Assembly: GCF_024298765.1 (NCBI RefSeq) | Contig: NZ_CP101210.1 | DNA length: 64,000 nt | DNA from: Escherichia coli | GTDB lineage: Bacteria; Pseudomonadota; Gammaproteobacteria; Enterobacterales; Enterobacteriaceae | Reading direction: 5' to 3' (one strand) | Part shown: piece after piece, positions 44,305 to 49,426 of the stretch | Layout of the letters: every line of letters begins with the position of its first letter | How positions within the stretch are numbered: position 1 is the stretch's first letter | Made by a program: the position numbers and the translations under genes | Notes under the pieces: model-generated | What the model was told of the DNA's origin: nothing | The model's input: only the letters and a program-made list of their open reading frames with translations | Database searches by the model: none

Positions 44305-45873
44305 TTAGCGTGCCGGCTGAGTAGTCGTGGAAGACTGCTCAAAGTGATAGCGACCGGTTTTCAGGCTGCTTGGGCCGAGGCGTGCAAACTTGAACATTAA
44401 GAACAATTCTGCCACCAGGAACAGGGTATACAGGCCGCAAATCAGCACCATTGAGAAGATGAGATCGCCTGCGGTCAGTGACGAATTCGCCACAGCTGTC
44501 GGCAGCACTTCACCGATAGCCCACGGTTGGCGGCCATATTCAGCCACGAACCAGCCCGCTTCTACAGCAATCCACGGCAGCGGAATACCGTACAGCGCGG
44601 CGCGCAGCAGCCATTTTTTCTCGCCAATGCGGTTGCGGATGACACTCCAGAAAGAGAGCGCAATGATTGCCAGCAGCAGGAAGCCACACGCCACCATGAT
44701 ACGGAACGCGAAGTACAGCGGCGCTACACGCGGAATGGAGTCTTTGGTTGCCTGTTGAATCTGAGCTTCAGTCGCATCAGCCACGTTTGGCGTATAGCGT
44801 TTCAGCAGCAGACCGTAACCGAGATCTTTCTTCATGCTATTGAACTGGTCACGAACGGCCTGGTCAGTAGAACCAGAACGCAGTTGTTCGAGCAGAGAGT
44901 ACGCCTTCATCCCGTTACGAATGCGTTCTTCATGCTGCACCATCAGTTCTTTCAGGCCGATAACTGGAGTATCCACGGAACGCGTTGCAATGATGCCCAG
45001 CGCGTAAGGGATCTGGATCGCAAATTTGTTCGTCTCCTCTTCCTGATCAGGAATGCCGAACAGAGTAAAGGCAGCAGGTGCAGGTTGCGTTTCCCACTCG
45101 GCTTCGATAGCAGCCAGTTTGGTTTTCTGCACGTCGCCCATTTCGTAACCGGATTCATCACCCAGAACAATAACAGACAGAACGGCAGCCATACCGAAGC
45201 TGGCAGCGATAGCAAAGGAGCGTTTAGCGAAGGCGAAGTCACGACCTTTCAGCATATACCATGCGCTGATACCGAGGATGAACATTGCGCCAGTCACATA
45301 ACCAGAAGCTACGGTGTGAACGAATTTCACCTGAGCAACCGGGTTAAGCACCAGCTCGGAGAAGCTCACCATCTCCATACGCATAGTTTCAAAGTTGAAA
45401 TCGGACGCGATTGGGTTTTGCATCCAGCCGTTTGCAACCAGAATCCACAGTGCGGACAGGTTTGAACCGAGCGCCACCAGCCAGGTGACACACATATGCT
45501 GAACTTTACCCAGACGATCCCAACCGAAGAAGAACAGACCTACAAAGGTGGATTCGAGGAAGAAGGCCATCAGACCTTCGATTGCCAGCGGCGCACCGAA
45601 GATATCCCCTACATAGTGGGAATAGTAAGACCAGTTAGTCCCGAACTGGAACTCCATGGTCAGACCGGTAGCCACACCCAGAGCAAAGTTGATACCAAAC
45701 AACTTGCCCCAGAACTTGGTCATATCTTTATAAATCTGTTTGCCGGAAAGAACGTAGACCGTTTCCATAATGGCCAGCAGGAACGCCATACCGAGCGTCA
45801 GTGGCACAAAAAGGAAGTGGTACATCGCGGTCAAGGCAAACTGTAAGCGCGACAGTTCGACTATATCTAACAT
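44305..45873 (-). CDS. cydA: Cytochrome bd-I oxidase subunit I
   Basis: [70 protein letters not shown]; 522 aa. Confidence 0.96.
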
Positions 45874-47201
45874 CATGACTCCTTGCTCATCGCATGAAGA
45901 CTCCGAGAGTGAACCCCGTTAGAAAGGGTCACACGCATGCCCCAATACAAAATTATTTGCTCGCCTCTATCGTTGCCATTTCATCAAAAGAGGAAAAGAC
46001 AATGATAAAAAAGTTACAAATGTGTTAATGAATAAACCAAATTGATCCCGTAATTATATTACGCCGCAAAATCCTTACAATAAACAGGTTTTTATTGAGC
46101 AAATTTGCATTTTTCGACAGTGATCAATTTATAGCGAAATTGTCACGATCTCACCAATTTGATCTACAACAATTTATCGTGTTTTGCAGATTTTTTTCAA
46201 GAATTAAAAATTGATTTATATCAAAATCAACCATATATGTTAATTATGTGTGAATCATGAGCCACTGGTAACTTTATTGTTAATTTATTGTAACAAAATA
46301 GCACAGTAAAATTACCCACATGGAAATATATAGATAAAAAACCAGTATTTTATTTAACAGAGCCGCTTTATCGACTTTTTATAATACTAATTAGTTAGAG
46401 TAGCTACTTTATTGCCATTTTACATAACATATTTTTATCAACGTTAATTGATTGTTGTCTTTATGAGCAACGTACTGTAAATCCGTCACTTATTGTTTCA
46501 TTGGTAATAATCACAAGAAGAAATAGATACCTTAGGTATAGTCAGATGGAACAAGGATTTTCAAAATAAAATATATATGGTATTAATATTTCCCGATCTG
46601 TATTCAATGATTAGCTCAAAGATTGAAAATCAAGAGAAATTGTTATAGCAGTGATACGAAACAACAAAACGGAATGATTGCCAGCCGTTAGAAAACACCG
46701 GACACTCTCGTGTAAAAAGCTACCCTGTCTATGGATATAGCGATATCAACTCATCAAGCGTGGACTGAATGATATTCAGCTCCATATGGGCGGCAACCTG
46801 GAGGATAAACATGATTTCGCCGTTGGAATCAAGGTTGTTCTGCAATATCTACCAGACTGCTTCAATTTATCTGTTTTGGCAGTGCCATAATCTTAATTTA
46901 ACTATTTGAAGATGATGATATTGTAAGATGCCAGAAATTTAGTAATCTGGAGAACCATGTTTACGATCACTAAATATTAAAGTAATAGTCGATAATTCAG
47001 TAACACATCGGGTAATATAATGTATTGATACATAATCATATTAAAAATTCGTGATTAAATAACATAAGAATATGTTTTATTATCATTAAAAAACCTTCTA
47101 TTTCCATCATCCTTAAGATAATAGAACAGTGAATGATGGATAACTTCACCAGAAAAACAAGCAAGAATATAAAATTTAAAAATATGATTCCACTTTCATT
47201 G

Positions 47202-48317
47202 TTATAAAATGGCATCGTGAAGAGCGAGTTGATAATACTGCAATGCATCAGCGTCCTGTCCAGCAGTTTCATAAATTTTGGCAATGTTATAATAGGAGTT
47301 AGCGCGCATTGTCGCCGCATTTGCTCCACTGGCTAACGAGATCGCTTTACGATTTGCCCAAATTGCTTCCGCGATGTTGCCATTTTTCTGATACGCCAGC
47401 CCCAGGTTACTAAATGCCTGTCCGTAATTGCCGTCTAATTCTGTTGCCTGTTGGAAGAGTTGAATGGCTTGCTCAAGTTGACCGGTTTTATAAACAGCTT
47501 CACCTTCGCGATTATATTTTCTTGCCAGTTGAGTATCTCCACTGTTTTGCATCGCAGGTGAAGCCGGAGTTGAAGAACCCGTCGCAGGCATTATCACAGT
47601 GGCTAAATCCCTGACGCCTAATGTGGTGTCGTTAAAATTGGCGCTGGTAACAGAGTTGATATCTTCAAACTCGCCGTTTGGATTGAGTTTAAACACGGTC
47701 CAGATGTTCCCTCGTTTTCCAGCAGGGACACTATAACTACGCACCAGGGAGCTCCCTACATAAACAAACACTTTTGCCTTACTGGCAGAGAGATAATTAC
47801 TGTTGGGCAACCCTTTGTTGCTATAGTCCTGCACGGCATAGATGTAACTTTCGCCAAAATGCTTTTTGCTGATAGTGACAGTTTCTGATCCATAGCTATC
47901 CGTATCATCAACATCCAGATTAGCATCAGTCCCCTCTTTACTATCAAAATAGATATGTCCGCCAGGGAAGATCAAATGTGAATCAAGATCAAAAGGCTTT
48001 TCGCCCCAGCTCAAAACTACACGCATGCCATCCAGACTAGTCATTGCCGGACTAATCGCATAAGTCATGCCAGCACACGAACATTTGACCACCAGATTAG
48101 AATAGCCCTCTTTTTTGACGATCAATAAAGCATCTTGATCATCAGCAAATGTAGAACCCAGATTAACGCTGCCCGATGCATTTGTGGTTCCAGAAACAGA
48201 TTGTGCGCCATTGCGTTGCAGCGTCACCGATACTCCCTCAATGCGTTTATCTTTCACTGTCGCACTTAAAATATCGATATTTACATCGGCCGCATAAACG
48301 TCCGAATTTACACCCAT
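47202..48317 (-). CDS. Hypothetical protein with C-terminal TPR repeats in the position K-12 has mngRAB; N-terminal start uncertain
   Basis: 371-aa ORF; C-terminal ...AIQLFQQATELDGNYGQAFSNLGLAYQKNGNIAEAIWANRKAISL...ALQYYQLALHDAIL. Confidence 0.6.
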   Translation of the reverse strand: MGVNSDVYAADVNIDILSATVKDKRIEGVSVTLQRNGAQSVSGTTNASGSVNLGSTFADDQDALLIVKKEGYSNLVVKCSCAGMTYAISPAMTSLDGMRVVLSWGEKPFDLDSHLIFPGGHIYFDSKEGTDANLDVDDTDSYGSETVTISKKHFGESYIYAVQDYSNKGLPNSNYLSASKAKVFVYVGSSLVRSYSVPAGKRGNIWTVFKLNPNGEFEDINSVTSANFNDTTLGVRDLATVIMPATGSSTPASPAMQNSGDTQLARKYNREGEAVYKTGQLEQAIQLFQQATELDGNYGQAFSNLGLAYQKNGNIAEAIWANRKAISLASGANAATMRANSYYNIAKIYETAGQDADALQYYQLALHDAIL

Positions 48318-48454
48318 CAGGGCCAGAGCAACCGGCAGAACAATTTTCTTCTTGTATAAATGCTTTTACAGAACGGAGAGGGGATATTTTGCCGGGCATT
48401 ATTGCGCAGAAGATGGGAGAAAAGCAGTGGGCAAACTTTTCAGATTAGTGCCCG

Positions 48455-48556
48455 AATAAAAAAGGCCATCATAAGATGGCCAACCATGTCGAAACCGACA
48501 GCCCTTCGCCCCTCCTGTAGAGGGAAGCGGCGAGGGCTATTTCTTATTACAGATAT
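48455..48556 (-). ncRNA. sdhX: SdhX (RybD)-like 3'UTR sRNA of the sdh-suc operon with intrinsic terminator
   Basis: About 100 nt downstream of sucD stop ending in ggccatc..gatggcc hairpin plus T-run; boundaries approximate. Confidence 0.55.
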
Positions 48557-49426
48557 TTATTTCAGAACAGTTTTCAGTGCTTCACCGATATCCGCCAGGC
48601 TGCGAACGGTTTTCACGCCTGCGGCTTCCAGAGCAGCGAATTTCTCATCCGCAGTCCCTTTACCACCGGCAATGATCGCACCTGCGTGACCCATACGTTT
48701 GCCTTTCGGCGCAGTCACACCAGCGATGTAACCCACAACTGGCTTGGTAACGTGCTCCTTGATGTACGCCGCTGCTTCTTCTTCAGCGCTACCGCCGATC
48801 TCACCGATCATCACGATCGCTTCGGTCTGCGGATCTTTTTCGAACATTTCGAGGATGTCGATAAAGTTAGAGCCAGGGATCGGGTCGCCGCCGATACCAA
48901 CGCAGGTCGACTGACCGAAACCGTAATCCGTGGTCTGTTTAACCGCTTCATAGGTCAGCGTACCGGAACGGGAAACGATACCCACTTTACCCGGTTTGTG
49001 AATGTGACCCGGCTGGATACCGATTTTGCATTCCCCCGGGGTGATAACGCCTGGGCAGTTCGGGCCGATCATACGAACGCCTGCTTCATCCAGTTTCACT
49101 TTCACCGTCAGCATATCCAGCGTCGGGATGCCTTCAGTGATGGTGATAATCAGTTTGATGCCTGCATCGATAGCTTCCAGAATGGAGTCTTTGCAGAACG
49201 GTGCTGGTACGTAGATAACAGAGGCGGTAGCGCCAGTAGCAGCAACAGCTTCACGCACGGTGTTGAACACTGGCAGGCCGAGGTGGGTAGTACCGCCTTT
49301 ACCTGGGGTTACGCCGCCAACCATTTTAGTGCCGTATGCAATGGCCTGTTCTGAGTGGAAAGTCCCCTGGCTACCGGTAAAGCCCTGGCAGATAACCTTG
49401 GTGTTTTTATCAATTAAAATGGACAT
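48557..49426 (-). CDS. sucD: Succinyl-CoA synthetase alpha subunit
   Basis: 289-aa [48 protein letters not shown]. Confidence 0.97.

Follow-up and report, generated by a model that had tools for sequence, protein, structure and literature searches.

This locus raises the question of how, or whether, a gene is translated when its reading frame seems to begin with a signal peptide and has no start codon in front of it. The window is a stretch of 64,000 nucleotides from Escherichia coli (contig NZ_CP101210.1), and the gene is a tetratricopeptide repeat (TPR) ORF on its minus strand, at 47202-48353, with a frame that is open across 383 codons in this strain. The 1,411 bases around it are 100% identical to E. 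coli strain 104 (NZ_CP029164). From the in-frame TAA (48368-48366) to the first ATG the codons are AAG CAT TTA TAC AAG AAG AAA ATT GTT CTG CCG GTT GCT CTG GCC CTG, which translate as K H L Y K K K I V L P V A L A L and are followed by M. The initial annotation was right that no canonical start precedes this ATG (0 of the 16 codons is ATG, GTG or TTG), and right again that an out-of-frame ATG lies about 80 nt upstream: it is at 48399-48397, 82 nt (27 codons plus 1) before ATG 48317. The sequence from the internal ATG reads ATG GGT GTA AAT TCG GAC GTT TAT GCG and then GCC GAT, which gives GVNSDVYA before AD, an AxA-type cleavage site. The stretch as a whole, KKKIVLPVALALMGVNSDVYA followed by AD, has the n-, h- and c-region anatomy of a Sec signal peptide. 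Three options had been offered for it: initiation at a rare start codon, a frameshift in the N-terminus, and decay of the gene. Based on comparison with intact alleles, the ORF is very probably the third: what remains, in its original place, of a gene that encoded a secreted TPR protein and became a pseudogene by loss of its start codon, its Shine-Dalgarno (SD) sequence and its 3' end. The features are collected in Table 1.

Table 1. Features of the TPR locus, in positions of the whole window
Feature	Position	Strand	Basis or placement
Intrinsic terminator of sucD (GGCCATCTTATGATGGCC, then a T-run)	48454..48481	-	upstream of the putative TPR pseudogene
Out-of-frame upstream ATG; heads a 50-aa ORF; outside the gene	48397..48399	-	
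TAA, in frame, in the former 5'UTR; upstream bound of the start-less ORF	48366..48368	-	sequence reading
Former Shine-Dalgarno: AAGGA in intact alleles, AAGCA here; G>C at 48362	48361..48365	-	allele alignment
Former start codon: ATG in intact alleles, AAG (Lys) here; T>A at 48352	48351..48353	-	allele alignment
Remnant of a 21-codon Sec signal peptide, (M>K)KKIVLPVALALMGVNSDVYA, cleavage before AD	48291..48353	-	homologous signal peptides in 24 aligned family members
Internal ATG, codon 13; RefSeq/PGAP start of the 371-aa 'tetratricopeptide repeat protein' WP_000538731.1	48315..48317	-	
Still-open remnant for the mature protein: transthyretin-like domain, TerD-like domain, linker, three TPRs	47225..48290	-	
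Junction of the 259-bp deletion (~47224), then out-of-context tail LHDAIL and TAA stop	47202..47224	-	blastn and junction sequences against AZ159

Two types of intact allele were found in E. coli. In the first, carried by about 565 complete genomes such as Ecol_AZ159, the gene follows mngB; its protein, from ST131-type strains, is annotated at 397 aa (WP_000725054.1) and starts with MKKIVLPVALALLGMNAGAYA before AD. In the second, seen in MSB1_4I and five other genomes, a 397-codon ORF comes directly after sucD, which is the position of the gene in the window. The intact alleles share the window's domain order and are 92-95% identical to it in nucleotides over the gene, but the SD AAGGA, the ATG start and the complete C-terminus, all lost in the window, are still present in them. 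A further difference of the AZ159-type gene is its place, after mngB instead of directly after sucD.

By inspection, the AZ159 signal peptide consists of MKK, IVLPVALALLGM and NAGAYA before AD: a basic n-region, a hydrophobic core and a small-x-small cleavage motif. The window segment matches the real signal peptide of the intact alleles, MKKIVLPVALAL(L/M)G..., residue for residue, and by this homology its signal-peptide look is not due to chance. The initial annotation's signal-peptide-like N-terminus stands in so far as it is homologous to a real signal peptide, but its leading K-H-L-Y does not: these residues are former 5'UTR, outside the ancestral protein, and the ancestral start was the codon that is now AAG at 48353-48351.

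Two substitutions make up the difference between the window and the intact alleles at the initiation site. Both AZ159 and MSB1_4I have AAGGATTTATACATGAAGAAAATT where the window has AAGCATTTATACAAGAAGAAAATT, and both have AAGGATTTATAC-ATG-AAGAAAATTGTT where the window has AAGCATTTATAC-AAG-AAGAAAATTGTT. The computed duplex with the anti-SD is -5.4 kcal/mol in intact AZ159, in MSB1_4I and in allele L011, and -0.1 kcal/mol in the window. The third lesion is at the other end of the gene. In the intact AZ159 sequence, CTGGCG direct repeats lie at both bounds of the 259 bp that the window lacks, and this deletion takes 20 codons from the end of the TPR gene and about 195 bp beyond it. The last 20 residues, YTEKNKPSYEEAIARVKTKM, are swapped for LHDAIL in the window allele. 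The residues lost include Y386 and R392, which are invariant in 24 homologues, and the capping helix (384-396) of the TPR module.

The same alignments bear on the second option, in which the N-terminus would come from ATG 48399 by way of an indel or a programmed frameshift (MPGKISPLRSVK fused to the TPR frame), or in which the sequence would simply be wrong. An ATG does lie 82 nt upstream in the other frame, and there are A-runs (GTAAAAGC, GAAAATT) in between. However, the window and the intact MSB1_4I allele align without an indel from the TAA to the internal ATG, and a frameshift is therefore excluded. ATG 48399 is also found upstream of the intact MSB1_4I gene, where it is equally out of frame, and it is missing from the AZ159-type allele. 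Sequencing error was rejected, as the identical 61-mer occurs in 433 independently assembled complete genomes. We consider this option exceedingly improbable.

In the RefSeq model, translation begins instead at ATG 48317 and gives a cytoplasmic TPR protein of 371 aa. No canonical start comes earlier in the frame, and in strains 104 and AH21E028 the PGAP annotation has a CDS from this ATG. Against this model, the position of the ATG is within the hydrophobic core of the signal peptide, as the initial annotation had noticed and as both direct reading and the homologue alignment confirm; signal-peptide N-termini were seen by inspection in 24/24 aligned homologues. The internal Met is not conserved, being Leu in the AZ159 allele and variable across the family, and its anti-SD pairing is weak (-2.4 kcal/mol). 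PGAP also picks the same internal ATG in MSB1_4I, despite an intact SD and ATG 36 nt upstream, and the call was therefore taken to be propagated from the protein cluster and not to be evidence in itself. A cytoplasmic protein made from this start is very unlikely.

As a rare start codon, AAG 48353, ATT 48344 or CTG 48338 might each serve, in a down-tuned gene that makes low amounts of exported protein. The frame is open across all 383 codons, and by inspection the AAGAAG upstream of CTG 48338 matches AAGGAG in 5/6 positions. Near-cognate and non-cognate codons do initiate in E. coli reporters, at 0.01-3% of AUG; AUU and CUG reach 1-2%, and other non-AUG codons, including AAG, 0.01-1% (Hecht et al., bioRxiv 10.1101/063800). 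In the window, however, the SD is destroyed too, and the duplex energies for these candidate starts are -0.1 to -1.6 kcal/mol, so that the output from a non-canonical codon here is probably below the reporter levels. By computation, no alternative to the lost start pairs more strongly than -2.4 kcal/mol, against -5.4 in the intact alleles, and no canonical codon is available before 48317. Initiation at ATT or CTG would furthermore drop the basic n-region of the signal peptide. Downstream, the C-terminal capping helix is deleted, constraint is relaxed, an invariant Pro is replaced, and a third or more of the carriers have gained a nonsense mutation besides. Trace expression from a non-AUG start might conceivably occur in the window allele, but we judge a working gene of this kind to be quite unlikely, and of the three options in the initial annotation the rare start codon is unlikely and the frameshift unsupported.

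Homologues outside E. coli were used to ask what the ancestral gene looked like. A protein homologue search was filled, in its top 120, by near-identical E. coli proteins only, and the outgroup came from a genome scan of one genome per species, which found 31 loci. These come from Pseudocitrobacter (76% identity), Enterobacter sp., Pectobacterium, Cellvibrio, a Nitrosomonadales genome, many Bacteroidota, Sulfuricurvum and Helicobacter. All of the loci with a readable 5' end (27/27) begin with ATG or GTG, continue with a basic and hydrophobic signal peptide and then read (V/I)LSA(T/V)VKD; in two Bacteroidota homologues the signal peptide contains a lipobox-like Cys. Within E. coli the start is ATG in AZ159, MSB1_4I and E69, and AAG in the window. 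The initial annotation had held that orthologues which start at the same internal ATG and are cytoplasmic would speak against its reading. The homologues start 12 codons upstream of that ATG and carry signal peptides, and they give no such counter-evidence.

The gene also follows sucD in Pseudocitrobacter, Enterobacter sp., Pectobacterium fontis and Pectobacterium zantedeschiae. Within the fetched flank, cydA comes next in Enterobacter sp. and in both Pectobacterium, and is not seen in that of Pseudocitrobacter. On the minus strand of the window the order is sucB(odhB)-sucC-sucD, the intrinsic terminator, the TPR ORF, 1.3 kb of AT-rich DNA and cydA. As the order sucD-gene-cydA is common to other genera, the window keeps the ancestral position, and the gene decayed in place. 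The genes mngR-mngA-mngB are missing from the window and lie between sucD and the TPR gene in other E. coli, e.g. Ecol_AZ159. Since the AZ159-type megablast match begins only at query position 194, it was considered whether the 5' end of the gene had been deleted together with mngRAB. This idea was rejected: the sequence upstream has diverged but is still homologous, the start aligns base for base, and the ancestral order sucD-gene-cydA contradicts it as well.

Several features of the neighbourhood were recorded along the way. On the cydA side of its intact TPR gene, MSB1_4I has an accessory island, annotated with an RtcB fragment, a LysR regulator, cobO and a class I fumarate hydratase. Given this island and the mngRAB genes of other strains, the sucD-cydA interval is therefore an insertion/deletion hot spot in E. 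coli. The sucD 3'UTR (48454-48556) holds a strong intrinsic terminator and is, we assume, the SdhX (RybD) sRNA; an Rfam scan of 45800-48700 at the gathering threshold gave 0 matches, SdhX included. Between the TPR remnant and cydA, 45877-47201 is 1.3 kb of AT-rich DNA (31.5% GC) with 95% identity to the matching AZ159 region. Its ORFs of at least 50 aa amount to one spurious-looking 97-aa GTG ORF. This interval, which we take to be longer than its K-12 equivalent, presumably holds a long cydAB regulatory region.

A census of 5,426 complete E. coli genomes, by exact or near-exact matching of 61-mers around the start site, was used to see how common the start-less allele is. The TPR gene is carried by about 1,110 of the 5,426 genomes. 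The start-less 61-mer, centred on the AAG, is found exactly in 433 of them and with up to 2 mismatches in 113 more, 6 of which are of the intact MSB1_4I type; this puts the start-less allele in about 540 of 5,426 genomes (~10%). AAG was retained in all of the near-match genomes that were sampled (HH45, 09-02E, 82.0311 and AREA_R504). Carriers include CFT073, Nissle 1917, ATCC 25922, 83972 and the type strain DSM 30083, presumably all of phylogroup B2. The allele is fixed in a large, successful E. coli group of extraintestinal pathogens and commensals (of the type of CFT073, Nissle 1917 and DSM 30083). One could imagine that it is still alive, with very low and possibly regulated expression from AAG, ATT or CTG in the absence of an SD and with traces of an exported TerD-like/TPR protein, but we hold this to be highly doubtful.

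Many of the sister copies carry further damage. W332, which is invariant in 24 homologues, is still intact in the window strain (codon 47360-47358) but has become a stop (TGG>TGA/TAG) in at least 183 start-less genomes by exact 61-mer, Nissle 1917 among them. HH45 has a frameshifted copy and 82.0311 a 6-nt deletion. In CFT073, SCU-101, 09-02E, 82.0311 and AREA_R504 the gene carries a pseudogene flag in RefSeq; for CFT073 the reason, as given in the RefSeq annotation only, is an 'internal stop'. The unrelated E. coli strain E69 (CP089930.1) keeps its SD and ATG and has a 456-nt internal deletion at ~1955, equal to 152 codons and divisible by three, which removes about residues 88-239, essentially the TerD-like domain. 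W332*, the frameshifts of HH45, the deletion of 82.0311 and the 456-nt loss of E69 indicate that the TPR gene is being lost by several independent routes. On the exact window 61-mer background, none of the 5,426 genomes has a single-lesion intermediate (ATG with AGCA, or AAG with AGGA), and the loss of the ATG and the loss of the SD are accordingly left unordered in the history that we propose.

Selection on the gene was evaluated over 377 shared codons, with substitutions polarised by the AZ159 allele as outgroup. The window branch has 6 synonymous and 12 non-synonymous changes (omega ~0.59), its intact sister MSB1_4I has 15 and 3 (omega ~0.06), and the AZ159 outgroup branch has 37 and 18 (omega ~0.14). 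The window branch differs from the MSB1_4I branch (6:12 vs 15:3; Fisher's exact test, p=0.006) and, on its 18 changes only, is not distinguishable from neutral (p=0.27). One of the changes specific to the window, P156S (47888-47886), alters the YGPET motif, in which all 24 aligned homologues agree. Together with W332*, the frameshift and the 3' deletion, this ratio describes a gene under relaxed constraint that has gathered extra lesions.

Some observations speak against the pseudogene reading and would fit residual function too. All 383 codons can still be read without a stop, and 297 genomes match exactly the window-type 61-mer with TGG at codon 332; the omega of 0.59 on the window branch is below 1, though on 18 changes only. 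The open frame in the window strain is nevertheless due to chance and is no evidence of function, because 3.6-4.1% of the possible substitutions in the ORF create a stop and the probability of no stop after ~18 of them is about 0.5.

The following history is very probable. The changes from ATG to AAG and from AAGGA to AAGCA knocked out translation initiation in the window's E. coli lineage, and a 259-bp deletion between short direct repeats removed the last 20 codons. Neutral drift followed, with the frame staying open in the window strain by chance, and sister strains have since gained the nonsense mutation, frameshifts and small deletions. The pseudogene reading brings together what was observed of the three lesions, the population frequency, the relaxed constraint, the ancestral state and the synteny, and the window allele presumably makes no meaningful amount of protein. 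The 'decaying gene' of the initial annotation is the option that held up, through the T>A loss of the start, the loss of the SD, the 3' deletion, the relaxed constraint and the knockouts in sister strains.

The main value of this result is a correction of the annotation, in which a start has been called within a signal peptide. The 371-aa protein that RefSeq derives from this ATG is probably artefactual, and WP_000538731.1 and WP_000538732.1 (371 aa each) most likely do not exist as proteins. As the start-less allele is present in ~10% of complete E. coli genomes, the error is therefore widely propagated. In MSB1_4I (NZ_LR898874.1) RefSeq/PGAP likewise starts the gene at the internal ATG, at 1529 instead of 1565, for a product of 385 aa. 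This protein, WP_024193058.1, is 12 residues too short, and its start was probably propagated from the cluster of the start-less allele. Beyond annotation, the locus offers a clean and datable example of stepwise decay in an accessory gene, with lesions of the SD, the start codon and the 3' end and then nonsense and frameshift mutations.

The product of the intact gene is exported and uncharacterised, and it joins an unusual TerD-like domain to TPRs; it may merit study in ST131-type strains, where the gene is intact. Searching the literature by locus and by RefSeq accession gave no result. The intact protein, of about 397 aa, is made up of a signal peptide, two beta-sandwich domains and a TPR module of three repeats. 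Of these, Pfam detects only the C-terminal TPRs (TPR_1, TPR_2 and TPR_12 above the gathering threshold; TPR_1 reaches 50.5 bits in the window ORF, where the cut-off is 27.8), and Foldseek matches them to CTPR and HOP with probability 1.00. The N-terminal ~250 residues matched no Pfam family at E<=10, a spurious DMAP1_like aside, and no PDB entry by sequence; the YfaP / DUF2135 name is a JGI label only, and Pfam gave no DUF2135 match in the N-terminal 251 residues. The resemblance to TerD is one of fold alone, and the domain falls outside the Pfam TerD sequence family. Acidic motifs are linked to Ca2+ in TerD, and the invariant acidic motifs here suggest, by analogy, that the TerD-like domain may bind Ca2+. 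The intact protein is presumably periplasmic, and it is most likely a periplasmic or exported adaptor for protein interactions.

Compared with known TerD-family proteins (PDB 2qz7, SCO6318; 2kxt, Klebsiella TerD), the TerD-like domain has merely 16-17% sequence identity. TerD itself is cytoplasmic, whereas the TPR-gene protein appears to be exported and has its TerD-like domain fused to a transthyretin-like domain and TPRs. Three-repeat TPR modules with a capping helix (CTPR3, 1na0; HOP TPR2A, 1elr) are matched by residues 274-396 of the intact protein, with a TM of about 0.85-0.9 and 20-34% identity; unlike these modules, the window allele has lost the end of its last repeat helix and the whole capping helix. 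As a case of decay, the locus falls in with a process, reductive or neutral, that is established in E. coli and Shigella. Start-codon-loss pseudogenes as a class share with the window a single-base change of the ATG, later lesions and a relaxed dN/dS. In these terms it is a biologically ordinary pseudogene, and it is notable solely in being annotated as an intact CDS from an internal ATG.
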